This document shows, in pieces, positions 4,942-56,145 of a stretch of DNA of 64,000 nt. The notes beneath the pieces are model-generated. The model made no database searches, had not been told where the DNA came from, and saw only the letters and a list, made by a program, of their open reading frames with translations. The translations under genes and the position numbers were made by a program. The stretch is from a bacterium. Lineage in GTDB: Bacteria; Krumholzibacteriota; Krumholzibacteriia; G020349025. Where the stretch lies: assembly GCA_031362565.1 (NCBI GenBank), contig JANLSU010000119.1, forward strand, positions 1 through 64,000, in the 5' to 3' direction. Every line of letters starts with the position of its first letter. The first letter of the stretch is position 1.

Positions 4942-5817
4942 ATGCTGGAGCAGGCACGTGTGAATCCAACCGCTGCAGCCGCGATGGACGGCGCCGTGCG
5001 GTCACAGATTCAAGACGTGTGCTCCCCATGCGGTGAGTTCGTAGCGGACGCTCTCGAATGCCGGCTTCTGCGGCGCGGCGGCGAATGGTTCCGGCAAGTC
5101 TTCGACGAAAAGCGCTGTCAGCCGTACCTTTTCCTCGAACGCTTCCTGCGCAAACGCGTCATCGCGCGCCTCGGAATCGAGGCGGCCGAGCATGTCCCCG
5201 ACATCGTTTCGGAAGTAGTGTTGGGACTCCTGCAAACGCCACCACGCGGCCTGCCGGCGAATCATGTCGTCGCCATGCGGCGCTTGCTCGCGGGACGCGC
5301 GCAACGGGCGCTCGTCGATTATTGGCGCGGGGTGAAAGGGCGCACTCGGTGTGGCAATTGCGGCTATCACCACGCCATGTCGGACGGAGTCCGTCGATGT
5401 GAGTATCCCGATGCGCGGCATCCGTGGTCCGGACGCGAAGTGCCGGCCGCGGTGGATCCACGCACCTTCGACCCGGCGTGCGAACGTTACTCGAGCCGGC
5501 GTGACAAGATCGCCGAGGCCACCGATGGGCGGGATCCGCTGGCCGCGGTCGCGAGCACGGATTCCACGCCCGATCAAGAAGCCGCCGCGGGCGAGCGTAC
5601 GACGATCCTGCTCGACTGCCTCGCGGCCGTGCAGCGCCAGGACCCGCGCGCCGGGCTCGTTCTGATGTTGTCGTACTTCAAGCACAAGACCAACGACGAG
5701 ATCGCCGGCGTGATCAAGAGCACGGTGCGAACGGTGACCCGCGCCAAGGAAAACGGGCTGACGATTCTGCGCCAGGAGTTCGAGTCCCGCGGGATCCAAT
5801 TCCAGGACCTCGCGTAG
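4942..5817 (+). CDS. Atypical ECF-like sigma-70 factor with a Cys-rich insertion
   Basis: Sigma2-like VPDIVSEVVLGL...AQRALVDYWR; sigma4-like LSYFKHKTNDEIAGVIKSTVRTV; CGNC...C...C lies between them. SD AGGAGG before ATG 4942. Confidence 0.7.
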   Translation: MLEQARVNPTAAAAMDGAVRSQIQDVCSPCGEFVADALECRLLRRGGEWFRQVFDEKRCQPYLFLERFLRKRVIARLGIEAAEHVPDIVSEVVLGLLQTPPRGLPANHVVAMRRLLAGRAQRALVDYWRGVKGRTRCGNCGYHHAMSDGVRRCEYPDARHPWSGREVPAAVDPRTFDPACERYSSRRDKIAEATDGRDPLAAVASTDSTPDQEAAAGERTTILLDCLAAVQRQDPRAGLVLMLSYFKHKTNDEIAGVIKSTVRTVTRAKENGLTILRQEFESRGIQFQDLA

Positions 5818-5838
5818 GCTGAATCGAGGTGTTGCGTC

Positions 5839-6612
5839 ATGGGCGATACAGAACGTTTTGAAAAATGGCTGCGTGACGCGGCCGGCAGCCCGTCCATGCA
5901 AGAGCGGCTGGCGCGCGCCGAGGCGCAGCCCGATTTGCCCGAGGAAGTGCTGGCGGACTACTACGCTGGCGAGTTGTCGCCCGCGGAGCAGCAGTTCGTC
6001 GAGCGGCGTATCGCGGTGTCGGAAAAGATGGGCCTGTTCCTTGCCGAGTTGGACGCGGACGTCACGGAAGCAACGCCTCCGGCACCGCCACGCCCGGTTT
6101 TTGCGACGTTCCTCGCCCGCGCGATGCATTTCGTCGAGAAGTTGTTGCCGTCACCGAACGCCCAGCGGCTCGCCGTTGGCATCGCCGGAATCGTCCTCGT
6201 GGTCGGGATCTCGAGCCGTGTCCTCGATCGCCCACCGGGTGGCCTGGGGCCCGAGTACGGTGTGGCGACGCCACGCGGTGCCGAGGACCTGCAAGAGCTG
6301 GCGCTCCCGGGCGGCGCGGTCGGACTCGTGGATCCGGACTGGCCGCTACACCAGCCGATCGGATCCGTTTCCAGCGTGCGCTGGTTCGCATGGGACCCGG
6401 CGCGCGGCGCGGTGACCTACCGGTTCGAACTCCGCGACCCCAACGGCGGCATCGTGTACACGAAAGACGGACTGCCAAAGAGCGTCCTGCGTCTCCCATG
6501 GACCGTGCGCCGCTCACTCGCTCACGAAGTCCTGTACGCCTGGATCGTGACGGCGGTCGACGCCGGCGGTACCCCTCGGCTCAGAGCCGTCGGCAAGTTC
6601 AGGATCGAGTGA
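5839..6612 (+). CDS. Putative membrane-anchored anti-sigma factor
   Basis: Degenerate zf-HC2-like segment EEVLADYYAGELSPAEQQFVERRI, one TM helix, extracytoplasmic beta-rich domain; directly follows the sigma gene. Confidence 0.65.
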   Translation: MGDTERFEKWLRDAAGSPSMQERLARAEAQPDLPEEVLADYYAGELSPAEQQFVERRIAVSEKMGLFLAELDADVTEATPPAPPRPVFATFLARAMHFVEKLLPSPNAQRLAVGIAGIVLVVGISSRVLDRPPGGLGPEYGVATPRGAEDLQELALPGGAVGLVDPDWPLHQPIGSVSSVRWFAWDPARGAVTYRFELRDPNGGIVYTKDGLPKSVLRLPWTVRRSLAHEVLYAWIVTAVDAGGTPRLRAVGKFRIE

Positions 6613-6620
6613 GGTCCGCG

Positions 6621-8024
6621 TCACTTCGATTGTCGCGCTCCAGCGAGCGCCAGCAAGATCTTCCCATAGCGCGCCCGCTCGGCCGCCGGCAGCAATGTGG
6701 GATCGAGTAAAGCCGCTGGCTTTTCAGCGCGCACCCAGGTACCGATCTTCAACTCGAACGCGAGGCGCAAGGCCGGATCCTTGGAGCCTGCGATCACGAC
6801 CAGATCGACGCGACCGTCATCGTCACGGTCGTAGAATGTCCGGTGCTCTGGTTCGGGCTGTAGCGCGAACTCGAAATCCCACTTGGCCGGATCCAGATTG
6901 AACTGCCCGGCGGCGACAGATGCCGAGTCGGGGCAGCTGTTCTCGTCCAGATCGCAGAGCACGCCGGTGACAAGGCCGTTTCCAAGCCCGAAAACCAACG
7001 TTTCCATCTTGCCGTTGCGGTCGCAATCGTGCAGTTCCCAGGCCGACGCTTCGGGCCAGGCATCCGGAATCTGCAGATCGGGATTCTTGGGCCGGTCGAC
7101 GAGAAACGACTTCAACTCACTGAGATCGATGTGATAGGAGAAGTGATCCAAGCCCGACGGCGGGATCGCGAACGTCACCGCAATCACTTCACCTCGCGCG
7201 TTCACGAGCGGGCCGCCGCTATCGCCCGGGTTGATTCCGCACGACGACAACACGACGCGGCGCTTCGGAATTTGCGCCATGAGGTGCGCGAGGCTCTGCG
7301 CGTCTTGCTGCGACGTCGAGCGCAGTGTCCACATGCGCACGTCGATGTGTTCGCTCGGCCAGTCCCCGACTCCGTCCACATCGCACTGGCGCATGGTCCA
7401 CAGGAGGCCCGCCGCCGGATGTCCAATCGCGATGCATTCGCTTCCCGGCACCGCCGCCGCCGGTGACAGTTTGAGCGCGGGGAGGGTCGCGAGGTCGGAG
7501 GGTTTGCGAACCAGCTTGAGGAGCGCGAGGTCGCGCTCCCGACTTGCCCGATAGACGATTGCCGGAACGGCATCGGGGAGCACATGCATGAGATGATCGT
7601 TCATCCGCCCCATGTTGATGTCGACGATGGGTGCGCCGGTTTGCATATCGGTCGCGGCGGCAGCGATGACGTGATGATTGGTGATGATCCAGCCGTCCGC
7701 GTCGATCAGGAATCCCGATCCATGACCCATCGGGGTGCGGACCACGACGACAGCCGGGGCCACCGTCGGGTAGAGATCGAGGCCGGCGCCGCGGCTCGCC
7801 TGGCGCGGTGCCGCTCCGGGTGCCCACGTCTCCGTCTCGGCGGCGCGCAGCAAGGCGCGCTCGAGCTGCGCCGGCGGTGCGCCGAGATTGGCGCTGGCAC
7901 CCAGTGGTGCGATGGAAGTGGGAAAGTCGACGGCAACCGCCGATGCGGTCCAGACGGGATTCGCGACAAGCCCCACGACAGGCGCCCATCGCAAACCCGC
8001 GGCGAGGCGGAAAACTTGGAACAT
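6621..8024 (-). CDS. Secreted trypsin-like (S1) serine protease
   Basis: GSGFLI, TNHHV, DLALLK and GDSGGP triad motifs; signal-peptide-like start at 8024 after GAAGGA; C-terminal DxDxxG loops. Confidence 0.9.
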   Translation of the reverse strand: MFQVFRLAAGLRWAPVVGLVANPVWTASAVAVDFPTSIAPLGASANLGAPPAQLERALLRAAETETWAPGAAPRQASRGAGLDLYPTVAPAVVVVRTPMGHGSGFLIDADGWIITNHHVIAAAATDMQTGAPIVDINMGRMNDHLMHVLPDAVPAIVYRASRERDLALLKLVRKPSDLATLPALKLSPAAAVPGSECIAIGHPAAGLLWTMRQCDVDGVGDWPSEHIDVRMWTLRSTSQQDAQSLAHLMAQIPKRRVVLSSCGINPGDSGGPLVNARGEVIAVTFAIPPSGLDHFSYHIDLSELKSFLVDRPKNPDLQIPDAWPEASAWELHDCDRNGKMETLVFGLGNGLVTGVLCDLDENSCPDSASVAAGQFNLDPAKWDFEFALQPEPEHRTFYDRDDDGRVDLVVIAGSKDPALRLAFELKIGTWVRAEKPAALLDPTLLPAAERARYGKILLALAGARQSK

Positions 8025-8233
8025 ACCAGTCCTTCCGAAGGAGGCCGTTCCCAGGCACGTGTCGATCAGGTCACGCATGAAGTGCCCACTTCCATAATGC
8101 CGCCGCGCCGCCGTTTCGCACGCGCGGGGTGCAGCCAGGCCAGGGTTCGGATTGCGCGAAGCGCCGAGTATAGAGCCCCGTGCCGGGCTCGCAAAGAGGC
8201 TTGCGACCCCCCGGAACGTGGCATAATCCCGCC

Positions 8234-8836
8234 ATGGACGAAACCGAAGATCGACCGAACCGCGCCTCGCGGGACGGTCACTCGACCGAGTCACTTCTGG
8301 CGCGAGCGCGGGCCGGGGACCGATCGGCGCTCGACCTGCTCATCGCGCGTCATTCGCCCCGGTTGCTGCACTGGGCCCATGGACGGCTGCCGTATTGGGC
8401 CCGCGATGTGATGGAAACCGACGACCTCGTGCAGATCACGCTCCTGAAAGCATTGAACCACGTACAGGACTTCGTGCCGCGTCACGAAGGGGCGTTTCTC
8501 GCGTATCTGCGTCAGATTCTGCTGAACGAAGTACGACAGGAGATCCGGCGGATCCGCCGCCGGCCCGAAAAGGACACTTTGCCGGCGGATTTCGCGGCCC
8601 GGGACCGGTCGCCGCTCGAAGATCTGGTCGGGTGTGAAACACTGGAGCGATACGAGGCAGCGCTCGCGAAATTGCCGGAGGCACAACGGGCTGCAGTAAT
8701 CTTGCGGCTCGAATTCGGGTTCACCCACGAACAGATTGCGGACGCTTGTGAGAGTCCGAGCGCGAATGCAGCGCGCATGATGGTGAAGCGTGGATTGCTT
8801 ACCCTTGCATCGGAGATGGAGCATGCCGGTGAATGA
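8234..8836 (+). CDS. ECF sigma factor, kinase-associated type
   Basis: LLARARAGD, ETDDLVQ, FLAYLRQILLN, LPEAQRAAVILR, EQIA, NAARMMVKRG. An extended -10-like TGGCATAAT lies 6 nt before the ATG, so the transcript may be leaderless. Confidence 0.92.
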   Translation: MDETEDRPNRASRDGHSTESLLARARAGDRSALDLLIARHSPRLLHWAHGRLPYWARDVMETDDLVQITLLKALNHVQDFVPRHEGAFLAYLRQILLNEVRQEIRRIRRRPEKDTLPADFAARDRSPLEDLVGCETLERYEAALAKLPEAQRAAVILRLEFGFTHEQIADACESPSANAARMMVKRGLLTLASEMEHAGE

Positions 8837-10535
8837 GGGCGACGAAGAGTTTCTCGATCGCGTCGCCGACGCGATCGTAGACGGCGTGCCGGTCGACTGG
8901 CCAGAGCCGGAGACTTCGCACCCCGATGTCGGCGCGCGGATTGCGCAACTGCGAGCCCTCGAAACAATCGCCCGTGCCCACCAAGAGTTCGCGGCGAAGG
9001 TTTTCGCCTCCGGCGACGGTGCAGCGACGCTACCGGCGGACCGTTCGACCCGGCTTTCTCTTTTCGAATGGGGCTCTCTCGAAGTACTCGAAAAGCTGGG
9101 CCAGGGATCGTTCGGCGAAGTGTATCGCGCCTACGATCCGGCGCTGGCGCGCGAGGTCGCACTCAAACTCCTGCGTATCGAGCCGGGGATGACCTCGGCG
9201 TCCGGGGATCATTTCCTAGCGGAGGCGCGGCGCTTGGCCCGCATTCGCCACGAGAACGTCGTGGTCATCCACGGTGCCGATGTCCACGACGGCCGCCCGG
9301 GAATGTGGATGGACCTGCTGCGTGGCAAGACACTCGCCGAGGAGGGGGTCGGCCGTGGTCCGCTCGGGGCGCAAGAAACCGCCGTCGTGGGCGTGGCTCT
9401 CTGCCGGGCGCTCGCCGCCCTGCACACGGTCAACCTCATGCACCGCGATCTGAAACCCGCGAACGTGATGCGTGAACAAGGTGGGCGTATCGTGCTGTTC
9501 GACTTCGGTTGCGCGATCGAAACGGATCTCTCGCCGCGGCAACTCGCAGCGATCGCCGGGACACCGGTGACGATGGCCCCAGAAGTTCTCTTGCAGACAG
9601 CGCCCTCGAGCGTTACCGCCGACATCTACTCCTTGGGAGTTCTCTTGTATTGGCTGGCAAGCGGCAAGTATCCGGTGGAAGCCTCTAGCTTGGACGGGTT
9701 CCTGGAATGCCATCGGCGCGGCGACTGGGTGCCGCTTCGGAGCCTGCGCCCCGATTTGCCGAGCGACTTCGTTCAGACGGTGGAACGCGCCAGCGCGCGC
9801 CAAGTCGACGAGCGATACCCGAGCATCGGCGACCTGGAACGCGACTTGATGCGTTCTGTTGGCGTGCTTGGGCAAACCGCTTCGATTCCGGAACCGGCAA
9901 CGGCGCCGTCGCAGGCCCTGGAGACACATTCGCGTGGTCATCGGCAGAGCCGCGCCGGCGTGCGGCTGGCGGTTGCGGCGGCACTGGTTGTGGCCGTGGT
10001 CTCCGCCTTCCTGGCGCGCAGCCGGTTCGCACCGCTGCGCGCCGAGGCCACGCTCTATCGCCAAACCGGCGAGAGTGCTGAAATCCTGGTGTCCGACAGT
10101 GCGATTCACGCCGGCGATCACCTCTTCGTGATGATCGAGGGTTCGAAGTCCCTGTGTGTCTACGTGCTCTATCAGGATGCGACTGGCAAGCATTTCATCT
10201 TGCAGTCGCCGGTCGACGCCAGCGTCTTGGCGGCCGGCGTCCCGCACCGCCTGCCGGCGGAGTCCGTATCCGGCGCGGCGCCGCGCTCCTGGATCGTGAC
10301 GAGCGGCGGCGGCACGGAAACCATCGCGGTCATCGCCGCGCCGCACCGGTTGCCGCAGTTGGAAACCGAGATCCAGGACTACGCGCGGCTCGACACCGGC
10401 CGGTCCACCGCGGTGCATTCGCGCGGGATCGGTGGGGTCGTGGAGGAAGTGCGGCGGCCGCTCATCGACGTCGCCCGTCGCTATGAGAACGATGCTTGGG
10501 TGTGGAGCCGGCAACTTCGCAATGATTCGCCGTGA
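8823..10535 (+). CDS. Membrane Hanks-type Ser/Thr kinase with a DUF4384-like ectodomain
   Basis: GQGSFGEVY, VALK, HRDLKPANV, DFG, APE, DIYSLG; TM helix; ectodomain GDHLFV...VYVLYQD...GTETIAVIA. Confidence 0.92.
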   Translation: MPVNEGDEEFLDRVADAIVDGVPVDWPEPETSHPDVGARIAQLRALETIARAHQEFAAKVFASGDGAATLPADRSTRLSLFEWGSLEVLEKLGQGSFGEVYRAYDPALAREVALKLLRIEPGMTSASGDHFLAEARRLARIRHENVVVIHGADVHDGRPGMWMDLLRGKTLAEEGVGRGPLGAQETAVVGVALCRALAALHTVNLMHRDLKPANVMREQGGRIVLFDFGCAIETDLSPRQLAAIAGTPVTMAPEVLLQTAPSSVTADIYSLGVLLYWLASGKYPVEASSLDGFLECHRRGDWVPLRSLRPDLPSDFVQTVERASARQVDERYPSIGDLERDLMRSVGVLGQTASIPEPATAPSQALETHSRGHRQSRAGVRLAVAAALVVAVVSAFLARSRFAPLRAEATLYRQTGESAEILVSDSAIHAGDHLFVMIEGSKSLCVYVLYQDATGKHFILQSPVDASVLAAGVPHRLPAESVSGAAPRSWIVTSGGGTETIAVIAAPHRLPQLETEIQDYARLDTGRSTAVHSRGIGGVVEEVRRPLIDVARRYENDAWVWSRQLRNDSP

Positions 10536-12874
10536 GCCTGCGGCGCATCGGAGGAGGACAATTCGTGGGGGCGCGGCACTTCATCGCGATCGCAGCCGTA
10601 GCGTGTATCGCGTCGCGCAGTTGCGCGGCGGAGACACGGCGCGCGGTGCTCGTCGGGGTCAATACCTATGAGCGCCCTGCGCCGGCCGGCGGTCCGGCAA
10701 CCGCGGGCGAACGGCTTCGCGACCGCGGCTGGACGAACCTCGAGGGCAGCCTGAACGACATCGATGCGATGCAAGCAATGCTCGTCGGCCGTTATGGCTT
10801 CGCGCCCCGCAACGTTGCGGTCCTGCGCGACACGGCAGCAACGCGGAGTGCGATCCTGTCGCTGCTGCGGACGCATCTGGTGAAAACGGCGCAGAAAGGC
10901 GACGTGTGCGTGTTTTATTACGCCGGACACGGATCGCAAGTCTACAACTCGAAGTCCGCCGAACCCGACCGATTCGACGAGACGATCGTCCCGGCCGACG
11001 CGAACCAGGCAGCGACGTCGAACCGCGATATTCGCGACAAGGAAATCGCCGCGCTTTTCAACGACATCTTGGACCGGGGCGCAACTCTCACGGCGTTCTT
11101 CGACTGCTGTCACAGCGGTTCGATTGCGCGCGGCATCGGCGGACCCGGAAGGCTCCGGTCATTGCGCCCCGATCTGAACGACATCGCGCTCGCAGATTCG
11201 GATCGCCGCCCCAAGCCCGCAGATCGTGGCGCCCTGGTGATTTCGGCAGCCCAAGAGACGCAGAAGGCGGCGGAAATCGTCGACCCCGAGGGGCGATGCC
11301 ACGGGGTCTTCAGTTTCATGCTCGAGAAGACACTGCGCTCGGCATCGACAGCCGAGTCCACCGAGCGCATCTTCGCGCGCGTGCGCGCCCTGGTCGCATC
11401 CTCGGAGGCCGGGCAGTCGCCGGACGTCGAAGGCTCGGCCGAGCGCCTCGCCGCGCCACTTTTCGGCGGCAAAGCAACGGCAGGCGACAAGATCGTCTTC
11501 GGCATCCAGGCCGTGGATGGCAATCGGTGCCGCGTGCAGGGTGGATACGCTCTCGGTTTGTTGCCGGGATGCGAGTTGGTACCGGTGCGTGACTCGAGCC
11601 GCGCCGTGCCGGCGACGCGCATTCGCATCGATGCAACCGAAGACCTGAACTACGCGCGCGCCTCCTGCATCGGGGGGGATTTGAGCACCGTACGACCGGG
11701 CGCCCTGTTCGAAGTCGAGCGTTGGGCCACGGGGCCCGGGGCGCGCCTGCGTGTTTGGATTCCACCCGTTCTCGAAGAGGCCGCCCTGAAGCGCGCGGCC
11801 GCCGAATTCGCGGCGTTACCCCGGTCGAGCAACAGCCGCCTCATCGCGGATCCGACCGAAACGACACCAACCCACGTCGTCGCGTGGACGGGCACCGACT
11901 GGATGTTGTCCGGACCGGACGGCAAGGCAGTGAAGATTGCCGCGTCCACGGCGCAACTTGCGGCGGCAGTGAAGAGCGGCACCAAGCCAGAACAGCCTGC
12001 GAGCGTTTTTGTCCACCTGCCACCCTGTCCATCCGTCGTGTCGCGCTTGCGAACCAGTGCCGAGGCCGGCCAGTCGCCGGTGCAAATCGTCGGCAAGGAG
12101 TCGGAGGCGCAGTATCTCCTTGTGGGCCGGTGGGCGAACGGGCAAATCGAGTATGCGTGGACGGCCCGTAACGCGACTCAGTTGGATCTGGCCAGTACGT
12201 CGAGCATGCCGGTTCGGACCAACTGGTGCGCCGTGCGCTCGACTTCGACACCGGACCAGGTCGACTTGTTGCAGGACTCGGCTCTGCGTCTTGCCAAGGT
12301 CAATGGTTGGATGCAACTCGACCCGCCACCGGAATCGCAACGATTCCCGTACCACCTCGTGTTGCGCAACGTGCAATCCAACCAGAAGGTCGCGAACGGG
12401 AACACGGTGCACGACGGCGACACGATCCAGCTCTCGCTGGAGGCATCACCGTCGGATCTGGAGTTCGGGGTCGCACGCCGCTATGTCTATGTCTTCGTGA
12501 TCGACAGTTTTGGCAGGAGTACGCTGATCGTCGGTGCGAACAATACCGGCAATTTTCTGCCGGCCGTCACTTTAGCCAGCGACAAGATTCCGCCGGAAAT
12601 CGCGCTGCATAGCGATGCCGGCAGCGATTTGCACGTCTCCGAACCATTCGGCGTCGATACGTATGTCTTGCTGACGACGAAGGAACCAATCAGCGACCCG
12701 AGTCGTGTTCTGGCCTTCGACGGCGTTCGCGCCGTGCCAGTGACGCGCGGCAGCAGCGAGGAATCGGCGCTCAGCCAGTTGCTGTCGGGGCTCAACGCGC
12801 CGACGCGCGGTGCAAGCCTGCCCACCCCCGTGACGTGGTCACTCGACCGGATCGCGCTGCGATCGATGAAGTGA
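10532..12874 (+). CDS. Secreted caspase-family (peptidase C14) protease with a DUF4384-like C-terminal domain
   Basis: RAVLVGVNTY; catalytic dyad YYAGHG and DCCHSG; signal-peptide-like N-terminus; GTGA overlap with the kinase gene. Confidence 0.9.
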   Translation: MSLRRIGGGQFVGARHFIAIAAVACIASRSCAAETRRAVLVGVNTYERPAPAGGPATAGERLRDRGWTNLEGSLNDIDAMQAMLVGRYGFAPRNVAVLRDTAATRSAILSLLRTHLVKTAQKGDVCVFYYAGHGSQVYNSKSAEPDRFDETIVPADANQAATSNRDIRDKEIAALFNDILDRGATLTAFFDCCHSGSIARGIGGPGRLRSLRPDLNDIALADSDRRPKPADRGALVISAAQETQKAAEIVDPEGRCHGVFSFMLEKTLRSASTAESTERIFARVRALVASSEAGQSPDVEGSAERLAAPLFGGKATAGDKIVFGIQAVDGNRCRVQGGYALGLLPGCELVPVRDSSRAVPATRIRIDATEDLNYARASCIGGDLSTVRPGALFEVERWATGPGARLRVWIPPVLEEAALKRAAAEFAALPRSSNSRLIADPTETTPTHVVAWTGTDWMLSGPDGKAVKIAASTAQLAAAVKSGTKPEQPASVFVHLPPCPSVVSRLRTSAEAGQSPVQIVGKESEAQYLLVGRWANGQIEYAWTARNATQLDLASTSSMPVRTNWCAVRSTSTPDQVDLLQDSALRLAKVNGWMQLDPPPESQRFPYHLVLRNVQSNQKVANGNTVHDGDTIQLSLEASPSDLEFGVARRYVYVFVIDSFGRSTLIVGANNTGNFLPAVTLASDKIPPEIALHSDAGSDLHVSEPFGVDTYVLLTTKEPISDPSRVLAFDGVRAVPVTRGSSEESALSQLLSGLNAPTRGASLPTPVTWSLDRIALRSMK

Positions 12875-12902: not shown

Positions 12903-15900
12903 TCAACGTTCCGACTGGGAAACGATCTCTGCGACGAGCCGGGCAGCGAGTGCCAGCGGATCGTCGATGCGCCCCTCGATACTCGTTGCAGCGATCCGTC
13001 GCTTGTCGCGCGTGAGAATGAGCAAGACTCGCACGATTGTCCGGTTGATCGTGTAGGTTCCGCTCGCGCGGATTGCACCGGGGAGGTCGTCGGCGTCCAG
13101 GCAGACAATCCGCCCCGCCGATTGGCCGCGTGCAATCGTATAGCTTTGCTCCCGCAGCAGTTGAAGCACCGCACTCGACAGATCCAGCGAATCGAAGCCT
13201 TCTCGACCGTCGAGGAAACTCGGTCGCAAGATCATCGGCTTTTCCTGCGCCAGCGGAATCTGTGCCTTGTCCGTTGATGTGAACTGGCCGATGTCAAAAC
13301 TTGCACCGTTCGGCGCGGAGATGATTGGCCGTTGAATGCCACCGATGTTTTTCGCGAGAGAAGGCACACGGTCCGTGGCGTATTGGAAGAGCCGACTCAC
13401 GTCGGCGAACTCGCCGTCGCGTAGCGCCGCTCCCCGAAGGCCCTCGAGTAGCGCGTAGGTCAACAACCCTTGGCCGTACTGCGTCGCTTCATAGCTTGCG
13501 GCGTCGGCTGCGCTCCCCATGAGGACATGAAACCCGGTGCGATCCTTGAGGCGCTCAATGGCGCGGATCTGTCCAGAGGAGACGCTACGGGGCTCGACCA
13601 GCTTGTCGGCTGCGGCGCCCGCGGCACACGTGTCGAGAATAAGGACCTGTTTCAACGCCGGAATCGCTTTCACCCAACTTGTCAACTCTTCGCTCGTGAC
13701 CGCGTTTTGCTGGCGCACCGCCGGGTCAGTGAGATCCGCGCTTCGTGCTTCTTGTGTGAGGTACGCGTACTCGCCGGCTGCCGCAGGAAGCGCCACGCCG
13801 TGCCCAGCGAGGTAGACGACCAGCACGTCCGCCGGCCGTGCCTGACGAGCCGCTGCAAAGACAGTTGCAAAATTTGCCTTCGTCGGCGGGGTGGCGCCCT
13901 CCCCACTACTACTCGACAACAGGGTCAAGTGCACTTTGGACGCACCGAACAACCGCATGGCACCGAGTTGGAGCGCACGCGCTACGTCCGAGGCATCCTT
14001 GGCTGCATACCGCAAGCGGAGCGCTGGAGACGCATATTCTGAAATCCCGCCGACGATGACGTAGAGTTCCGGCACGGTCTTCGATTGTCCATCATCAGGC
14101 GGTGTCCACTGCACCGCGACACCGCGGCTCGAGAGATATCCCTCCGCATTCGAGGCCAACACTTCGACGCGATTCGGCTCTCCAGCAATAAACGGTGCGT
14201 CTGCCAGGTCGAGTTGCAGCGATGCTGTGTGCTGAGTGGGCGAAATCACCGTCTGCCCACGTGCATCCGCCACGACTTCCTTCCCGTTCACAAGCACGCG
14301 CACCTTGCCAATGCCCCCTCCTCGGTCAGTGAGCGTGATCGTTGCCTTCGTGCTCCCGGTGGGGGGCGGGGTGACGGCCACCAACGGATAGAGCGCAACA
14401 TTCTTGAAGGCGCGGACGTCTCGTAGCGGTTCCTTGCTGTAGCCGAGAACCCTCGCCAGCAGTCCCGGCTCGAAGTAACGCTCCTTCAGTTGGTACAGGG
14501 CGATGGGTTCGTTCTCCACGACCCATGACAACCCGTCGATATCACCCGCCGCAGCGGAATCGTAACGTCCATCGGGATCAACTACCGCCCAAGTTCCATC
14601 CTGAAATGAAAGCAGTCGCACCATTTCTCTGCCGCCTGCGGCATCAAGGATCCGGATAGAACCTTCCTCGAGCGCAGCCGCTATAAATCGTCCGTTCGCG
14701 AGATAGGCCACGGCATGCACGTGGGAGTCGACGTCAACCGTCCATTTTTGTTTTGCAGTCGCGACGTCCCATGCAGAGACGATTCCGTCCATTCCTCCAC
14801 TTACAACCTCGCGCCCGTCGGGGGAGAACATCGCCGCGCACACTTGACCCGCATGCGCGCCCGGAAAGGAACCGACTCTCTGCGTCTCCGTCGAAGGGTC
14901 AGGCGGTCCAAGCAGTTGCAGCTCTCCAAAGGCAGCACCCTCCTTCCAGTCTGCCACGCTCCACAAACGGAGGCCACCAGCCCAGTCACCGAACAAGAGC
15001 TCACTTCCGTCAGGCGAAAATGACATCGTTGCAAAGACGGAAGTACCAGGCCATGGCGGGTAATCAAGGCCCTGGGTGTGGAGCGTTCGAAGCTCGGTGC
15101 CGGTCTCCGCATCCCACAGGCTAACGGTACTGTCGCCGGCCGTTGCAACCAAGTGAGTGTCGGCGGACAGGGCGACGTTCTTGATTGGCTCGCGGTGACG
15201 ATAGAGTGCTACAAGTTCGAGCTCGCCATCAATGTTCCACAGCCTGCAACGACCGTCCGGCGTTCCAACCAGTAGCCGCTTCGCATTCGCCGAAAGGCAC
15301 AGTGGTGGATGTGCACCAGCACTGAGACGATTGGAGACTCCAGCGGGCGCGCCTGTACCAAATTTCGTGATGAGTGCTCCGTGGGCGTTCCAGATTCGGA
15401 TCGTGTCGTCGCGTGCCATTGTTGCCGCGAATTGACCGTCTGGCGACACAACGCCTGTACCGCGAAGCTCCGCGTGTGGACTTCCGTCAGACCACAGCGT
15501 GACGTTCCCATTGCCCGCGAGGAAGCTAGCCGATTCTTGCGACGTGGAGAGCGCGTTCACGGGCGAGACTTTGCCTGCAAGGATTCGCTCTGTCATTCCG
15601 GTGACGACATTCGACAGCGTGGCGGTCCGAAACTGTCCCAAGACAAGAAATGTGCCGTCCGCGGAAAGTGCGAGCCCTGGGGGTGGTCCACGTAGTTGCG
15701 TCAACCACAAGGGTTGGGCAGTGCCGTAGCGACGCAGTTCGACGCCCGTGTCGATGTCCCAACAACTTGCGGTGCCATCCCAGTATCCCGCGAAGACCTC
15801 TTTCCCGTTAGGTGAAAACGCCACTGAAGTCACGACCTCGCCGCCACTCGGGTAGGTTCGCTCCCTCTTCCCCGACGCCGGATTCCAAAGTTCGAGCATG

Positions 15901-16742
15901 CTGGCGGCCGGGCGGTACAACCTGCCTGGCGTCATCGTGAACTTTTCGATCTGCCCACCACCCAGGACAACGTGCTTTCCGTCGCGCGAAACCGCGACAC
16001 CAAAGATAGGAGATGCGGCGGCAAGTCTCCGCACGACACACCCTTTGGCGAGGTCCCAGATCGCAGCCGTGCCATCGAGGCCCGCATAAAGGCAATGTTT
16101 CCCATCCGGAAAAACTGCGAGCACCTGACGCATCAACCGAAAATTGACGCCAAGATCGGTGGCGACTAGATTACCGACGCGGGTCGCGTTGTCGTGCATC
16201 GTGCGAAGGCGCGATCCAGTTCTCACATCCCACACGACGAGTGTTGCGTCGGAGCTCTCGGTGATCAACCGGCCCCCATCCGGCGAAAAGACTGCGGCCT
16301 TGGTGCTTGGGATGATTTGCAGCTTCCCTCGCCGGGTCACATTTGTAAGGACATGAGTCAGAATGTTTTTGGAGAGATCCCAAATCTCCGTGCGGCGGTC
16401 CCCTGCGATCGCGCAGTGGACACCATCGGGGGACACCGCCACGACCGTTCCGCGCGAGAGAGCGCGCAGCTGGGTCCCAGTCGACGCTTCCCAAAGAACG
16501 ACTTCGCCACCGCTGTCTGCGGTGAGAACCCAACGATCGTCAACCGACGTGGCAATCGATACAACTTGTTCGGTATTGCCGACTTGGGGAATGAGTCGGA
16601 CTTCATCCTCGTTGTTGACCTGGCTGGCGCCCGCGAATTGTCCGCAGAGTATGGAGCCCGCACACGCAAGGACAGAGATCACCCGGATCGCATTAACGCG
16701 CCTTGGGCGATCGAGCAACGCGAATGAAATGGGTGGGCTCAT
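12903..16742 (-). CDS. WD40-repeat protein with a C-terminal caspase (C14) domain
   Basis: Many AFSPDG...WD repeats; catalytic dyad YLAGHG and DTCAAG. Start uncertain (16742 or 16826). Confidence 0.88.
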   Translation of the reverse strand: MSPPISFALLDRPRRVNAIRVISVLACAGSILCGQFAGASQVNNEDEVRLIPQVGNTEQVVSIATSVDDRWVLTADSGGEVVLWEASTGTQLRALSRGTVVAVSPDGVHCAIAGDRRTEIWDLSKNILTHVLTNVTRRGKLQIIPSTKAAVFSPDGGRLITESSDATLVVWDVRTGSRLRTMHDNATRVGNLVATDLGVNFRLMRQVLAVFPDGKHCLYAGLDGTAAIWDLAKGCVVRRLAAASPIFGVAVSRDGKHVVLGGGQIEKFTMTPGRLYRPAASMLELWNPASGKRERTYPSGGEVVTSVAFSPNGKEVFAGYWDGTASCWDIDTGVELRRYGTAQPLWLTQLRGPPPGLALSADGTFLVLGQFRTATLSNVVTGMTERILAGKVSPVNALSTSQESASFLAGNGNVTLWSDGSPHAELRGTGVVSPDGQFAATMARDDTIRIWNAHGALITKFGTGAPAGVSNRLSAGAHPPLCLSANAKRLLVGTPDGRCRLWNIDGELELVALYRHREPIKNVALSADTHLVATAGDSTVSLWDAETGTELRTLHTQGLDYPPWPGTSVFATMSFSPDGSELLFGDWAGGLRLWSVADWKEGAAFGELQLLGPPDPSTETQRVGSFPGAHAGQVCAAMFSPDGREVVSGGMDGIVSAWDVATAKQKWTVDVDSHVHAVAYLANGRFIAAALEEGSIRILDAAGGREMVRLLSFQDGTWAVVDPDGRYDSAAAGDIDGLSWVVENEPIALYQLKERYFEPGLLARVLGYSKEPLRDVRAFKNVALYPLVAVTPPPTGSTKATITLTDRGGGIGKVRVLVNGKEVVADARGQTVISPTQHTASLQLDLADAPFIAGEPNRVEVLASNAEGYLSSRGVAVQWTPPDDGQSKTVPELYVIVGGISEYASPALRLRYAAKDASDVARALQLGAMRLFGASKVHLTLLSSSSGEGATPPTKANFATVFAAARQARPADVLVVYLAGHGVALPAAAGEYAYLTQEARSADLTDPAVRQQNAVTSEELTSWVKAIPALKQVLILDTCAAGAAADKLVEPRSVSSGQIRAIERLKDRTGFHVLMGSAADAASYEATQYGQGLLTYALLEGLRGAALRDGEFADVSRLFQYATDRVPSLAKNIGGIQRPIISAPNGASFDIGQFTSTDKAQIPLAQEKPMILRPSFLDGREGFDSLDLSSAVLQLLREQSYTIARGQSAGRIVCLDADDLPGAIRASGTYTINRTIVRVLLILTRDKRRIAATSIEGRIDDPLALAARLVAEIVSQSER

Positions 16743-16849
16743 CTTTTGGTAGGCCGCCTCCCCGAGTCGAACGATAACCAGCGGTAGGACACTAGCAGAA
16801 ACAGCACGAATGCTGTGCAAGCGCATGCCATGGCCTGCAGAGATGCGGG

Positions 16850-50635: not shown

Positions 50636-53605
50636 TTAACGCCAGTCTCCAACTGCTACGAATCCTGCCCAGTGATACGGATGTCCGCCCGCACCGCGGG
50701 CCCGCGCTGCTTGCAGCGCACCAAGGCTCGCGGCGCGCACTGCCGCCGCCGTATCCATTTTCTTCTGGAAGTGATTCTCGTACAGCGAATGCATCCATGC
50801 CCCTGCATCCTCGTCGGCGACAGACCAAAGGCTCGCGATGACCGTTCGAGCGCCCGCCTGTTGAAAGACGCGGCGGAGCCCCATGACACCCTCGCGGGCG
50901 CGAAGCTCACCCAGCCCGGTATCGCAAGCCGACAACACCACCCACTCGACGCCTTCCAGGTCGAGTGAGGAAACTTCGTCCACCGTCAGAATGCCGTCGT
51001 CGCCTTCGACGGCGCCGGCCGCGGCGCGCCGGTTGGCGCCCGCGAATGCGAGTCCCGCAAAGGGCACATCACGCGCGGGATCGGCCAAGAACCCGTGGGT
51101 CGAGAGGTGAATCACGCGCCGGCCGGCGGCCGCAGCTTTGAAGCCGCGTTCGGTCGCCTTCTGGCCCAAGAGACAAAGCGTGTCGGCCGACACGGCGCGC
51201 GCCCACAACACCTTGATGTCCAACGCTTCGCGCCCCGAAGCCGGCAGCGGCCGGAATCGCAACCCGCTGGCCACGCGCCGCGAGTGCGCTGCTTGGGCCA
51301 TTTCGGGTGGACCGAAATCCGGATTGCCGACCGCGAGCAGTCCGACATTCCGCTGCTGCGTTCTCTGCGGCACGAGATCGCGTTCGGCGGTCAGAAGATG
51401 CACCACGGTTTCGCCTTCAACGAGATAGCGCTGGCCGTCCAACGGCAGCGCCATGAAATTGACGAGGTGGATGGCCCCGTCGGGCACGACGAACACCCGG
51501 CGCGCCGCCCGGAGCGCCGTCGCAAGTGGATCCCAGAGCGCCCGGCGCACGCGCTCGCCGTCGGCGCGACACGCGGTTTCGCCGGCAGCGAGCACCGCGT
51601 CCGTTTGATTCGCACCCGCTTGCAGATCACGCGACCATGCAGCGATCCCGGTGTCTATCGCCCCGGCGCTTCCGAGGTCGTAGGCCGCGACCGTGTGTTT
51701 GTCGCCACTGACGACGAATGCGGCGTACGCCTGTACGGGCTTCGCATTGAGCCCGCCGGCGGCGCTGGCGGTGGGAATGCGCGTGTACCGCACGTACACA
51801 ACGAGCGCCTCACCGGCATGCAGGTGGGCGGCAACCGCCTCGAAGTCGATGCGCTGCCGTTGCTGCTCGGTGTGATAGGCAGCGCTCTGTGCCGCCAGTT
51901 GTGCTTCCACGGCATCCTTGGCGGCGAGCGTCGCGTCGAGGCTGTGCTGATAGTCGGCATTCGACGCGCCGCCGGGCCCGCGCACGGCGAGCGACGCATA
52001 GCGTGTCCGCGCCCGGTCGAGCTCGCGGTCGAGACGGATGACCAGCGAGTCCTTGGAAGCGGCAACAGCGCGCCGCTCCGCCGCCACCTCGTCGAACACC
52101 AGGAGACGCGATTGCACGATGGCATCCACAACCTGGCGCGCGGTTGCCGGGTCGGGGTGCTGCGTGGCAATCGAAACGGCGCAGTCGAGACCCGAGGTCC
52201 GAATGGCCCCGTAGTCGGTCGCCTGGCGTTCCGGCGCGTGCCGCGCCATGCGCCGCAGTTGTTCGCGGCCCACAGCTTCCGCATGCAGCGCCTCTGCCAA
52301 CGCCGGCCCGATGGCGCCGGACTGGGCCGTGGCCCGCGCCAGAACCGCTTCGCAATCCATGGTGCGCGGGTGCTCGCGGCCAAACGCGTGCTCGTAGATC
52401 CGCTCGGCGGCGGCGCTCTTCGTTTGCGCCGCTTCGACGTGTCCCTCGGCGAGATCCAATTCCGCGAGTTCGATCTGACAGCTCGCCACATCCGGATGTT
52501 CCGCCCCGAGCAAATCGGTCCGCAGGTGGAGCACTTCTTCGTACCCGCGCCGTGCCGCCGGCAAGTCTTGGAGGTTCATTTGCAACTCCGCCGCGCCGAG
52601 CAGGTACGCCGCCAAGTCGAGCGGCGAAGTGCCCGGCTGCGACCGCAGGATCTTCAAAGCCTGCTCATACTTGGCCTGCGCGTCCCCGAAACGCCCTTGT
52701 TTGCGATCCAAGTCCGCGAGGTTGTCGAGAACGTTGGCGATGAGTGGATTGGTGGGCTCGAGCTTGCGGGTGCGAATCGCAAGGGCGCGGTCGAAGCACT
52801 GGCGCGCTTCCACGTAGCTGCCCGTTTCCATCAACAGGGCACCCAGGTTGTTCAGCACGCCTGCTACGGAGAGATTGTCGGTGCCCAGAGCCTTCTCGCG
52901 AATCGCCAACGCGCGGTCGTAGGCGTCGCGGGCGGATGGGAAATCGCTCGTCCACCAATACAAGATCGCCAGGCCCATGAGCGTGCGGCTCACGTTCATA
53001 GGGTCTTTGTCGAAGTTCCGCTCGCGAATGGTGAGTGATTGCTTGAGGCTCGTCTCCGCCGCATCGTAGTCGCCGAGCTTAGTAAGCAGAATGCCGAGGT
53101 CCTTGAGCGTTTCCGCGACCTCCGGGCTCGCGACGCCGAAGGCGGTGCGGCGGATCGCGAGCGCGCGCTCGTAGCAACCGCGGGCGCCGGAGAAACGTCC
53201 CGTATCTTCATACACGATCGCCAAATTGTTCAGGCTGGTGGCCACGTCCGGGTGCGTGGGGCCGGAGAGTTTCTCGTGCAGATGCACGGCGCGTTCCGCG
53301 AACTCCCGCACGTCCGCCACGCCCGAGTGCGCTGCACGCGTCGCGGCTTCGACCAAGAGATCGAGCACTGCCGCGGTCTCGGAGGAGTTTTTGCCGGACG
53401 ACGCTTCGACACGGCGGAGCGCGCTCCGCGCGTGTTGCTCGGCGCCGGTGAAGTTGGTGCTGTCGATTTGGGCCCGAATGGCGGTGATCTCGGGTGCGGC
53501 CGGCAAATCGGCTGCGCCCGACGCGCGGGGCACCGGCAACGCCCACCAACCCAACCAAGCGACGATGAGCGTCCGGCTGAAGTACGGTCGGGGCTTCCGC
53601 ATCAA
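50636..53605 (-). CDS. Secreted TPR-repeat CHAT-domain (caspase-like) protease
   Basis: Signal peptide; HPDVATSLNNLA-type TPRs; VPDG, IHLSTHG, VLSACDTG, SLWSV, HPYHWAGF. Confidence 0.93.
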   Translation of the reverse strand: MMRKPRPYFSRTLIVAWLGWWALPVPRASGAADLPAAPEITAIRAQIDSTNFTGAEQHARSALRRVEASSGKNSSETAAVLDLLVEAATRAAHSGVADVREFAERAVHLHEKLSGPTHPDVATSLNNLAIVYEDTGRFSGARGCYERALAIRRTAFGVASPEVAETLKDLGILLTKLGDYDAAETSLKQSLTIRERNFDKDPMNVSRTLMGLAILYWWTSDFPSARDAYDRALAIREKALGTDNLSVAGVLNNLGALLMETGSYVEARQCFDRALAIRTRKLEPTNPLIANVLDNLADLDRKQGRFGDAQAKYEQALKILRSQPGTSPLDLAAYLLGAAELQMNLQDLPAARRGYEEVLHLRTDLLGAEHPDVASCQIELAELDLAEGHVEAAQTKSAAAERIYEHAFGREHPRTMDCEAVLARATAQSGAIGPALAEALHAEAVGREQLRRMARHAPERQATDYGAIRTSGLDCAVSIATQHPDPATARQVVDAIVQSRLLVFDEVAAERRAVAASKDSLVIRLDRELDRARTRYASLAVRGPGGASNADYQHSLDATLAAKDAVEAQLAAQSAAYHTEQQRQRIDFEAVAAHLHAGEALVVYVRYTRIPTASAAGGLNAKPVQAYAAFVVSGDKHTVAAYDLGSAGAIDTGIAAWSRDLQAGANQTDAVLAAGETACRADGERVRRALWDPLATALRAARRVFVVPDGAIHLVNFMALPLDGQRYLVEGETVVHLLTAERDLVPQRTQQRNVGLLAVGNPDFGPPEMAQAAHSRRVASGLRFRPLPASGREALDIKVLWARAVSADTLCLLGQKATERGFKAAAAGRRVIHLSTHGFLADPARDVPFAGLAFAGANRRAAAGAVEGDDGILTVDEVSSLDLEGVEWVVLSACDTGLGELRAREGVMGLRRVFQQAGARTVIASLWSVADEDAGAWMHSLYENHFQKKMDTAAAVRAASLGALQAARARGAGGHPYHWAGFVAVGDWR

Positions 53606-53651: not shown

Positions 53652-55466
53652 CTACGGTTCGCGCTTCACCAAGTGAATCCGCCACGTCCAAACTCCCGGC
53701 GCACGTTCCAAGTCGCGGATCAGTCCGGCGATCGTGCCGGCGTGATCCGCGGGTTTGGGCCGCGACACCAGTCCATCGATGCCGCGTGTCAGGCGCGCTG
53801 CGCCGACGGCGGCAAAGTCATTGGCGCCTTCTGAATTGACGCGCGGTAATGCCGCCAGAGTCGTTTCCAATGCCTCGATCGGTTGGCGGGCCGCGACCAC
53901 GAGAATCGTTTCGGCGGCGCCATCGCGCGCCACCGACCAGTTGGCTTCTTCGCCCTGCAAACCGGTTGGCAGCCGCAGCGCTTGTTTGCCCGGCAAGCGT
54001 GGCGCAGCACCTGGCTGGGTCGGATGCAAGACGTAGGCACGGCCTTCGTTGTCCTCGTCCAAAACCCAAACACGCAACGGTTGCGCCATCTTCAGCTCGA
54101 GAAACAACTGATCGAAGGCTTGCACCGTATCGCCGTCCGCGAGTTGTTGGCCTTTGCCGCTACGGTCGCGGAAGAGCCGGGCTTCGGCGTGGGCGGGCAA
54201 GCGGGCGGGCAGCAGAACCAATGCCGCGGCGGCAGCGCCCGCCGCGGCGACACCGAGAGCGACACGCCACGGGTGGCGAGTGAACGCGTGCCACCACGGT
54301 GTGGACGGTGGTGAATCAGGGACTGGCACCAAGTCGAGGCTCGCCAGCAGTGCCGACTGCATCTGGCCGGCACTTCCGAAGCGTTGCGCCGGATCCGATG
54401 CAAGAGCGCGCTCGACGGCGCGCGTGAACTCCGGTAGAACGTCCGTCCGCTTTTCGGCAAGCGACGCGCGCTCGCCGCGCGCCTGGCGCGTCATGAGTTC
54501 GTCGATGTCGTCGGTGTCGATCGGATAGGAACCCGTGACCAACCAGAACAGCAACCCTCCGAGCGCGTAGATGTCGGCTGCTGCCGTCGGGCGGCCGCCG
54601 CGCAGGACCTCGGGGGCGACAGAAAGCGCCGTGACCGGTCGCGCTCCGGCGTCGGCGTCGGATTCAAGATCCAATGCCGAACCGAAGTCGGTGAGCACGA
54701 TGCGCCCACCTTTCTCACGCATGACGTTCGCGGGCTTGATGTCGCCATGGACGAGGTTCGTGCGGTGCAACTCTGCCAGCGCACCACAAAGGTCGATGCC
54801 GATCGCGGCGGCTTCGCGCGCACTGAGCGGGCCGCGCGTTTCGACGCAATGTTGCAGGGTCTCGCCGCGAATGAGATCGGTCCAAATTCCCGCCCTGCCA
54901 TCGTGCACAGCACAGTCGAAGACCGTGACGATGTTGGGATGACGGACACGCGCCTGGTTGCGGGCTTCATCGAGAGACTTCTCGAGCCCGGCGGAGTCGC
55001 CGGCACGGCGCAATTTGAGCGCCACGTCGCGCTTGAGGTTGGGGTCGTAGGCGCGATACACCTCGCCGAATCCACCGGTGCCGATTCTTTCGTGAACCAC
55101 CAGCCGCCCCCAGTGCCACGCTGGACTGGGGGCCGGCATCTGCCCCGGCGGCGCATCCTCGGCCGGCTCGTCCGCATCCGGCGCGGCCGCCGATGTCCCG
55201 GCCGCCACGGGTGGCGACGGTGTGGTTCCCGTCGCTGTCGCGGCGCGTTCCTGCGCCGCACGCGCGACGTTGTGCCAGTCGGCTTGATAGGCGTCCGCCA
55301 ACCGCGCGATGTCGGCGAGACGATCGAGGCCGGCTTGAGCGTCAACGTCGCCGGCGCCCGCACGCTCGCGGTCCCAATCGACTGTCCGGTGGTCGGCGAG
55401 CGCCTCGGCAACGCGCTGCAGCCGATCGTCGCCGCGCGCCTGCTTATTTTTCCCCATTCTTCCCAT
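53652..55466 (-). CDS. Membrane Ser/Thr kinase with a DUF4384-like ectodomain
   Basis: GTGGFGEVY, VALK, HGDIKPANV, DFG, APE; TM helix; ectodomain homologous to that of 8823-10535. Confidence 0.92.
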   Translation of the reverse strand: MGRMGKNKQARGDDRLQRVAEALADHRTVDWDRERAGAGDVDAQAGLDRLADIARLADAYQADWHNVARAAQERAATATGTTPSPPVAAGTSAAAPDADEPAEDAPPGQMPAPSPAWHWGRLVVHERIGTGGFGEVYRAYDPNLKRDVALKLRRAGDSAGLEKSLDEARNQARVRHPNIVTVFDCAVHDGRAGIWTDLIRGETLQHCVETRGPLSAREAAAIGIDLCGALAELHRTNLVHGDIKPANVMREKGGRIVLTDFGSALDLESDADAGARPVTALSVAPEVLRGGRPTAAADIYALGGLLFWLVTGSYPIDTDDIDELMTRQARGERASLAEKRTDVLPEFTRAVERALASDPAQRFGSAGQMQSALLASLDLVPVPDSPPSTPWWHAFTRHPWRVALGVAAAGAAAAALVLLPARLPAHAEARLFRDRSGKGQQLADGDTVQAFDQLFLELKMAQPLRVWVLDEDNEGRAYVLHPTQPGAAPRLPGKQALRLPTGLQGEEANWSVARDGAAETILVVAARQPIEALETTLAALPRVNSEGANDFAAVGAARLTRGIDGLVSRPKPADHAGTIAGLIRDLERAPGVWTWRIHLVKREP

Positions 55467-56145
55467 TCTTGCCGTTCTTGAGCCCCATCTCCTTGGCCAA
55501 GTTGACGAGGCCGCGGCTCAAGACCATGCGGGCGGCGTTTCGCGTCCGCTTCCCGAGCGCCTCCATGATGACGGCGGCACTCGCGCCCCATTCGACGTGC
55601 AGCGCGACCGCGATTTGCTGGTCCTCGTCGAGCCGTCCCAATGCCGCCCGGTAGCGGGCCTCGAATTCGGAGCCCAAGACTCCGTCCAATGGCGTCGCGG
55701 CGCCGTCTACCATGTCTGGATCCAACACCGAGAATTCCGGCTTGCCGTCCGCCCACCGGTATTCGGTCGCCACGAGATTGCGGACGATGGTGCGCAGGTA
55801 CGCCAGGAACGCGCCCGGACCTCGCGGCTCGAAGCCGTTCATCTTGTTGAACGCTTTCGTGAAGGCGATCTGCACGAGGTCTTCGGTCACGAGCCGGGCT
55901 CGGGCTCGCCCGGCCAGCTTGCCGTGCGCCGCCCGGCGGAGGGCCGGAGTGAACCGGCGCATGAGATCGGTAATGGCGCGTTCGTCCCCGCTCCGCGCCC
56001 GGATGATCAGAATGGCCGTCGTTTCGAGTGGGCGAGGTGGTTCTCCCCCCCCGCCCGTCGGGTGGTCTGGTCCGTCCAACACAAAAACCTCGCTCGGGGT
56101 CCCCGATCCGGTTTCGGCCTGGCGTGACGATTTGGGCTGGCACAT
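55444..56145 (-). CDS. ECF sigma factor, kinase-associated type
   Basis: RARSGD, VTEDLVQ, FLAYLRTIVRN, NAARMVLSRG; paralog of 8234-8836; overlaps the kinase start. Confidence 0.9.
   Translation of the reverse strand: MCQPKSSRQAETGSGTPSEVFVLDGPDHPTGGGGEPPRPLETTAILIIRARSGDERAITDLMRRFTPALRRAAHGKLAGRARARLVTEDLVQIAFTKAFNKMNGFEPRGPGAFLAYLRTIVRNLVATEYRWADGKPEFSVLDPDMVDGAATPLDGVLGSEFEARYRAALGRLDEDQQIAVALHVEWGASAAVIMEALGKRTRNAARMVLSRGLVNLAKEMGLKNGKNGKNGEK

Follow-up and report, generated by a model that had tools for sequence, protein, structure and literature searches.

In the 64,000-nucleotide stretch of bacterial DNA analysed here (the window; G+C about 65%, host genome 5.4 Mb), the periplasmic sensor of a receptor-type Ser/Thr kinase and the caspase-fold protease encoded directly downstream of it both contain the pentapeptide RGIGG. 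Our results show that these are two different motifs, each conserved inside its own family. The kinase loop and the caspase motif are not homologous; what goes beyond chance is the conservation of each motif inside its family and not the match between them, and the five-residue identity is probably a coincidence in an Arg/Gly-rich proteome. The useful product of the analysis is the definition of the kinase loop, L-R-G-[IV]-G-G, as the signature of a large family of sensors that is linked to caspase-fold proteases. Taken as a whole, with the loop mechanism that we infer below, the reading of RGIGG as two unrelated conserved family motifs is the one that we slightly favour. Receptor Ser/Thr kinases that activate sigma factors of the extracytoplasmic function (ECF) type are known, and what their outer domains sense mostly is not. 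The outer domain found here belongs to a very large family, has an apparently exposed Arg-Gly loop as its most conserved feature and travels with exported caspase-fold proteases.

The two proteins are encoded in one cassette on the plus strand. An ECF-type sigma gene (8180..8836; Pfam Sigma70_r2 2.6e-11, Sigma70_r4_2 1.3e-8) overlaps with its 3' end the start of the kinase gene (kinase 1; 8790..10535), and the GTG start codon of the protease gene (10532..12874) overlaps the stop codon of kinase 1. By its Pkinase score (126.3 bits, cut-off 31.7) and by the catalytic-loop, DFG and APE motifs read from its sequence (HRDLKPAN, DFG, APE), kinase 1 is a Hanks-type (PF00069) Ser/Thr kinase. It consists of the Pkinase domain, a single membrane helix (aa ~390-409) and a C-terminal periplasmic sensor, and its translation likely starts at ATG 8823 (Met12), where the alignment with P0008-P0010 begins. 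The protease, 780 residues from GTG 10532, starts with a signal-like segment, followed by a C14 domain and, at the C terminus, a DUF4384-type module; we read it as exported because its N terminus is signal-like. Its database copy, P0012, is 11 residues shorter.

The kinase ectodomain module and its Arg-Gly loop

The sensor of kinase 1 is a module of aa 415-581 (10032..10532, plus strand), which comprises, in this order, a DUF4384-type beta-sandwich, a short helix, the conserved loop, a helix and a closing strand. The loop, H-S-R-G-I-G-G-V (aa 543-550, 10416..10439, plus strand), carries the RGIGG reported in the original prediction (10422-10436, aa 545-549, with HS just before). That prediction had also placed an LT-RGIDG at the equivalent position of kinase 2, a paralogue encoded elsewhere in the window, and this holds as well: the motif is present at 53772-53786 on the minus strand (aa 559-565), and BLASTP aligns the two sites.

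A word-based search returned just 4 relatives of the ectodomain, and in the resulting five sequences R, G, G and V were already invariant. The profile of these five ectodomains matched 2023 proteins at E<=1e-3, 403 of them at E<=1e-30, among 1.84 billion cluster representatives; most of the matches are about 600 residues long and align across the whole module. We aligned 148 of the best 150 profile matches together with P0001, P0003 and P0008-P0010. In these 153 sequences, Arg is found in 153, the following Gly in 152 and the preceding Leu in 118, followed by Ile or Val (141), Gly (137), Gly (132) and Leu, Val or Met (136), which gives the consensus L-R-G-[IV]-G-G-[LVM]. Both window kinases fall into this family by module profile (E 1e-74 for kinase 1, 1.5e-78 for kinase 2) and by the R-G loop. 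The R-G is also present at 27 of 36 further loci of the phylum (21 genomes), and 8 of the other 9 read L-R-[SAR].

Seven long or partial family members that were scanned are all kinases, four of them with periplasmic tetratricopeptide repeats (TPRs) ahead of the module, and in these members the DUF4384 match exceeds the Pfam threshold. The assignment to DUF4384 (PF14326, gathering score 27 bits) is below threshold for the proteins of the window (kinase 1 23.3, kinase 2 22.6 and the protease C terminus 18.1 bits), and relatives found with the ectodomain profile (L150, L051, P0134, P0135 and P0171) score 34.3-45.6 bits, above the gathering score. A search for the ectodomain in the phylum of genome G208, aimed at independent kinase-C14 pairs, gave no match at E<=1e-15 in 251 genomes, with only 12 candidates scored per genome, and says little about its occurrence there. 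One relative in genome G003 (L051:5983-6681, minus strand) is a frame of 232 residues with the DUF4384 module only, a loop reading E-R-G-I-Q-G-I-V and no kinase domain, and may be a sensor-like protein in its own right or else a truncated kinase.

Structure prediction singles out the same residues. An AlphaFold2 model of the module from 5 sequences has a mean predicted local distance difference test (pLDDT) score of 77.6, with module residues 121-140 below 50. With 39 sequences the mean rises to 88.5 (predicted template modelling score, pTM, 0.84), and the sole stretch left below 50 is residues 129-136, that is HSRGIGGV; the helix and closing strand that follow have block means above 90. For the kinase loop, therefore, the model speaks against a buried motif, and its unplaced conformation agrees with an exposed recognition loop. 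Fold searches with the model identified no more than a generic immunoglobulin-like sandwich: Foldseek gave no match at E<=0.001, and the best VIA-align results were an S-layer protein (Z 9.1) and an AGS-C domain (Z 8.5). A description of the loop was not found in the excerpts returned by a full-text literature search for DUF4384, and a search for 'RGIGG' gave, among the matches listed, only clinical papers unrelated to the motif.

The caspase linker and the probable origin of the shared RGIGG

The downstream protease scores 79.9 bits for Peptidase_C14 (cut-off 21.4) and contains the catalytic dyad H133 (A-G-H-G-S) and C193 (D-C-C-H-S-G). Its RGIGG was correctly located in the original prediction: it lies at 11129-11143, 7 residues past the catalytic Cys, at the end of D-C-C-H-S-G-S-I-A-R-G-I-G-G (aa 191-204, 11102..11143, plus strand). 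We found 464 relatives of the C14 part at E<=1e-3 among 8000 scored candidates, and aligned 121 sequences (P0002, the G003 ortholog and 119 of 120 listed relatives, with P0012 left out). H133 and C193 are kept in all 121, and D191, C193, S195, R200 and R209 are likewise invariant. G201 is present in 115, and position 202 is Leu in 54, Tyr in 19 and Val in 10 sequences; Gly occupies positions 203 and 204 in only 10 and 9. The same picture emerged from 197 distinct linkers, obtained by pooling the alignment set with the open reading frames (ORFs) of 80 genome loci and 28 metagenome loci: Gly follows the invariant Arg in 186, I at +2, G at +3 and G at +4 occur in 19, 15 and 19, and G-[ILVM]-G-G as a whole in 2, namely P0002 and its 64%-identical relative P0013. 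As judged from these sequences, the conserved motif of the caspase family, whose members are metacaspase-like proteins of ~770 residues, is C-H-S-G-S-x-A-R-G only, and the trailing I-G-G is specific to the window lineage. Conservation of the Arg-Gly in homologs thus stands for the kinase loop (R 153/153) and for the caspase R-G (R 121/121), and fails for the caspase I-G-G.

Of the solved structures, plant metacaspases 9 and 4, yeast metacaspase 1, TbMCA2 and GSU0716 most resemble the caspase profile, with type II metacaspases (AtMC4, AtMC9) and orthocaspases as the best matches (E 4e-34 to 6e-30). In the alignments to metacaspase-9 and -4 the match stops immediately behind C-H-S-G-S and is taken up again at the R-G-A-L-V strand, which indicates that aa 197-233 (11120..11230, plus strand), with the second invariant Arg R209, occupy the place of the p20-p10 linker. 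Metacaspases and the window caspase share the His-Cys dyad, the D-x-C-H-S-G motif and a p20-p10 linker that starts right after CHSG. The linker of the family to which the window caspase belongs differs in being short (about 36 residues) and in its invariant S-x-A-R-G at the start, which is not found in the aligned metacaspases, and unlike these the window caspase adds the signal-like N terminus and the terminal DUF4384-type module. Type II metacaspases autoprocess after Arg or Lys in the p20-p10 linker. Autoprocessing in the post-Cys linker, which the original prediction had suggested, is therefore a reasonable proposal, and the closest similarity to metacaspases together with the conserved Asp191 suggests that the window caspase would cleave after Arg or Lys. 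Orthocaspases are described as cleaving after basic residues in the excerpts available of PMC6426788.

The C-terminal DUF4384-type module of the caspase (aa 606-777, 12347..12862, plus strand) is homologous to the kinase sandwich by hhalign (probabilities 93.2% and 92.3%). Because the sandwiches are homologous, a caspase counterpart of the kinase loop, if there is any, should lie in the C-terminal tail and not behind the catalytic Cys. A permissive alignment does place the kinase loop within a few residues of a caspase T-R-G (R759), and when only the tails were compared by hhalign (residues 100-167 of the kinase module, residues 712-780 of the caspase), no significant alignment resulted (probability 0.6%).

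We then consider how readily RGIGG could be shared by chance. Kinase 1 and the caspase had at least one pentamer in common in 53.5% of 2000 shuffles. Genome-wide, 381 open frames of 200 codons or more have a pentamer in common with the 37-residue caspase linker, and the residues covered number 11, 11, 11, 10, 10 and 10 for unrelated frames and 13 for kinase 1. A 9-mer, RLRSLRPDL, is common to the linker and one unrelated frame, and ARGIGG or RGIGGP occurs in three other frames of the genome. Eight of the 13 residues covered by kinase 1 come from a second shared word, LRSLRPDL, which lies at 9735-9758 in the cytoplasmic lobe of the kinase and at 11153-11176 in the caspase linker. It overlaps a motif of the kinase family in the former (L-R-x-x-R-P-D-L-P) and the caspase's own R-x-L-x-P-D motif in the latter. 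Since the cytoplasmic lobe is out of reach of a periplasmic protease, long shared words can evidently arise without periplasmic meaning. Recent DNA copying was also considered as the origin of the shared words and rejected: the two RGIGG copies differ at 3 of 15 bases, all at third codon positions, and therefore are no DNA repeat, and the LRSLRPDL copies show 6 differences in 24 bases, among them a Ser encoded by AGC in one copy and by TCA in the other. A further word of six residues, RPKPAD, is common to the caspase linker (11207-11224), where it overlaps the family motif P-x-P-E-x-R-G, and to the tail of kinase 2 (53745-53762), just after RGIDG.

The original prediction went further and assigned to one protease network, as cleavage or bait sites, a series of small-residue-RG sites in the surrounding proteins. 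These sites do exist: TPRGA at 6268-6282, ASRGA at 7785-7799 in the pro-region of a trypsin-like protein, SSRGV at 14118-14132 in a WD40-caspase and, in the C-terminal module of the caspase, VTRGS at 12740-12754 and PTRGA at 12800-12814. R759 of PTRGA is kept in 109 and R739 of VTRGS in 63 of the 121 caspase relatives, which counts in favour of such a code. The frequency of RG, on the other hand, is at background. The six proteins concerned (4890 residues) contain 36 RG where their composition predicts 34.1, a rate of 7.4 per 1000 residues, while 3441 long open frames from the whole genome give 8.9; the small-residue-RG pattern occurs 3.5 times per 1000 residues genome-wide, so that about 17 are expected by chance in the six proteins. 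In addition, the 257-residue protein with TPRGA matches no Pfam family, so that it is at most a putative anti-sigma factor. We regard a code of this breadth as very improbable. What survives of the first reading is the presence of two conserved sites, one in the unplaced loop and one at the position of the p20-p10 linker, in co-encoded extracytoplasmic proteins, and what does not is the general code or a firm link between the sites.

Paralogous cassettes and related systems

Kinase 2 (53652..55466, minus strand; Pkinase 129.2 bits; HGDIKPAN, DFG and APE motifs) is a full-length paralogue of kinase 1, with 208 of 577 residues identical (36%, E 9e-86). Upstream of it lies an ECF-type sigma gene (55444..56145, minus strand; Sigma70_r2 2.1e-7), and downstream an exported TPR-CHAT protein (50636..53605, minus strand; CHAT 196.8 bits, TPR_12 182 bits), which is also of caspase fold. 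A third cassette on another contig (C14, locus L178, G000:C14:51000-62000; all minus strand) comprises a sigma gene (8977-9702), a kinase (7074-9005) and a TPR-CHAT gene (3893-7225). The loop of this kinase reads LRLRGIGSL; the gene was missed by tblastn with kinase 1 and found by the profile search. All three such kinases of the genome therefore have a sigma gene upstream and an exported caspase-fold protease gene downstream, the protease being TPR-CHAT in two cassettes and the metacaspase-like enzyme at kinase 1. In the kinase 2 cassette, the TPR-CHAT gene has a radical SAM gene downstream of it (49051-50346, minus strand), and locus L068 contains another behind its kinase.

We extended this comparison to 36 other loci of the phylum; from their 199 candidate ORFs we scanned the 74 that are no further than 700 nt from the kinase, plus one more in L047. 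A sigma gene was found in 22 loci and CHAT in 16, and in 2 the TPR genes are cut by the contig end. No Peptidase_C14 neighbour was detected among the ORFs scanned at these 36 loci. The cassette of kinase 1 is thus a variant arrangement, with a metacaspase-like enzyme in the place that TPR-CHAT normally takes. Conversely, a kinase lies within 4 kb in only 4 of the 80 genome loci of the caspase family, and none of the kinases at these four has an ectodomain of the kinase 1 type. One locus from Polyangia (L124) has a different arrangement with the same domains: a small DUF4384 lipoprotein-like protein (877-1914, plus strand) and a kinase-FGE-sulfatase fusion (3869-6220, plus strand) are encoded upstream of a caspase of the same family.

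The CHAT neighbours (e.g. 50636-53605 and L040:2837-5995, both minus strand) carry [RGA]-E-G-[VIM]-x-[GA]-L about 11 residues past the catalytic Cys, a motif that on its sequence resembles the kinase loop R-G-[VI]-x-G-[LVM] at the family level. Pair-specific covariation between the kinase loop and the E-G-[VIM]-x-[GA]-L part was not detected in the 16 kinase-CHAT pairs, a small sample of related members (37 identities compared to 36.6 after permutation, P = 0.5).

Three described systems combine parts of this arrangement. In the ECF43 type, sigma factors are phosphorylated by their Hanks kinase, according to the excerpts available of PMC13147305. The pairs EcfP/PknT of Vibrio parahaemolyticus and EcfK/PknS of Xanthomonas citri are described there with a sigma gene that immediately precedes the gene of a single-pass kinase whose sensor part is periplasmic, as here. 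The window sigma factors likewise have Pfam sigma domains and genes directly upstream of their kinases, in keeping with the ECF43 type. That group is set apart by a region 2.2 in which a phospho-acceptor Thr replaces acidic residues; both window sigma factors read D-L-V-Q-I where many ECF factors have Q-E. As far as these excerpts go, PknS carries TPRs outside the membrane whereas the window kinases carry a DUF4384 module, and no protease partner is described for the ECF43 pairs whereas the window cassettes include one.

Craspase, of type III-E CRISPR, combines the TPR-CHAT protease Csx29 with a substrate, Csx30, and an ECF sigma factor, RpoE, and so shares TPR-CHAT and an ECF sigma factor with the cassettes described here; in it the protease controls the sigma factor, as is also proposed for DdvA (below). 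Some Csx30 substrates end in DUF4384, and Craspase cuts in a flexible linker (bioRxiv 10.1101/2022.08.17.504292, in part); it cleaves after Leu or Met, as cited in the accessible part of PMC11506125. Craspase is cytoplasmic and RNA-guided, whereas the window proteins are periplasmic and come with a kinase, and the likeness is an analogy only. DdvA/DdvS of Myxococcus xanthus is closer in location, being an ECF sigma signalling system with a periplasmic TPR-CHAT module as here; the same part of PMC11506125 proposes that the DdvA module cuts a flexible juxtamembrane linker in trans. It differs from the window cassettes in that the CHAT domain lies inside the anti-sigma factor itself and no kinase is described in that part, where the proteolysis is also only proposed.

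Possible roles of the kinase loop

Based on the ECF43, Craspase and DdvA systems, a protease docking or cleavage site appears as the likeliest single role of the loop. We propose that the loop may be an exposed recognition element of the periplasmic sensor, at which the exported caspase-fold protease encoded just downstream would dock or cut after the invariant Arg. The acting protease would be the C14 enzyme at kinase 1 and TPR-CHAT at kinase 2 and in many relatives, and loop cleavage might change the output of the kinase towards its sigma factor. This use of the loop by the downstream protease is a tentative assignment that leads the single alternatives and falls short of being probable. If it is true, these cassettes would make up a bacterial kinase pathway gated by a protease, with one defined residue as a target for mutation; if the protease reading is false, a tempting lead towards an Arg-Gly code is removed and the motif is defined for future work.

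Several observations weigh against our reading. As regards the site itself, the conservation of the loop extends over five residues on the primed side (G-[IV]-G-G-[LVM]), which would be unusual if only P1 matters. The gene neighbourhoods add to this: 18 of the 36 phylum loci have no caspase-fold gene among the ORFs scanned, and the absence of C14 neighbours at these loci and the rarity of kinases at the caspase loci, both given above, point the same way. Three further findings concern the coincidence of the two motifs. Kinase 1 ranks first in the genome-wide word control; the probability of I-G-G after R-G is about 7e-4 from the column frequencies of the caspase family; and G-[IL]-G-G occurs in no caspase lineage other than the one that adjoins this type of kinase. 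A metagenome contig (L150) contains a second pair of this lineage, with a kinase tail …RQRGIGGVVEE… followed directly by a caspase that reads …SISRGLGGPARLRGLRPD…, that is, RGIGG in the kinase and RGLGG in the caspase. The G-[IL]-G-G of these kinase-linked caspases counts as one evolutionary event, recognised post hoc.

The loop may instead have a role independent of proteases, as a glycine-rich lid, a hinge, a ligand-binding loop or a dimerisation contact. Its Arg would then bind either an anionic ligand or an acidic residue that is conserved in the sandwich. This ligand, hinge or dimer role is the main alternative to the protease site, although we consider it unlikely in its own right. It would account for the glycine-rich pattern that is kept on both sides of the hydrophobic residue, for the invariant acidic residues of the sandwich (D29 and D49 of the module) and for the half of the phylum loci that lack an adjacent protease. 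Extracytoplasmic regions of such kinases typically bind ligands and promote dimerisation, as stated in the available text of PMC13147305. It is not easily reconciled with the recurring gene linkage to exported caspase-fold proteases, nor with the AlphaFold2 model, which gives the loop no contacts even with the 39-sequence alignment.

A more specific possibility links the two motifs by function: the metacaspase-like enzyme would recognise R-G-[IL]-G-G both in its own linker (R200, for autoprocessing or self-inhibition) and in the kinase loop (R545), so that linker and sensor loop compete for, or are cut by, one active site. Both Arg residues are invariant within their families, the model is of low confidence at the kinase loop only, and the caspase segment sits where the metacaspase alignments break after CHSGS. 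R-G is followed by a hydrophobic residue in both (at +2, 147 of 197 caspase linkers have L/I/Y/V/M/F and 151 of 153 kinases have I/V/L/M), and G-[IL]-G-G is confined to the kinase-linked caspase lineage. The kinase ectodomain and the protease both lie outside the cytoplasm, and between the two genes there is either an overlap or a gap of at most 30 nt. Set against this, the signal comes from one lineage and hence from one evolutionary event, equally long words are shared with unrelated frames and with the cytoplasmic part of the kinase, and the ortholog pair reads RGLGG and RGIGG and is not identical. Most kinases of the family, moreover, pair with TPR-CHAT or with no adjacent protease. On balance such mimicry seems improbable.

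The docking or cleavage role can also be combined with these elements into a joint scheme, in which the protease acts at the loop and gates the sigma-phosphorylating kinase, the C-terminal strand stays bound after the cut and the caspase linker mimics the site. One code, R-G-[IL]-G-G, would then serve for both self-processing and sensor cleavage in the lineage of kinase 1. SEA and GAIN domains provide a precedent for the third element, as their C-terminal strand stays bound after cleavage. We hold the joint scheme to be doubtful.

Further genes flank the kinase 1 cassette. Another candidate for a protease that acts on the kinase loop is a trypsin-like protein (Trypsin_2; 6621-8294, minus strand), encoded divergently from the sigma gene. 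The gene of a WD40 beta-propeller protein of 1379 residues with a C-terminal Peptidase_C14 domain (12903-17042, minus strand) runs convergently to that of the caspase. Small proteins with Dockerin_1/EF-hand-like calcium-binding repeats are encoded near the cassette at 2678-3517, 4119-4778 and 16946-17500, all on the minus strand.

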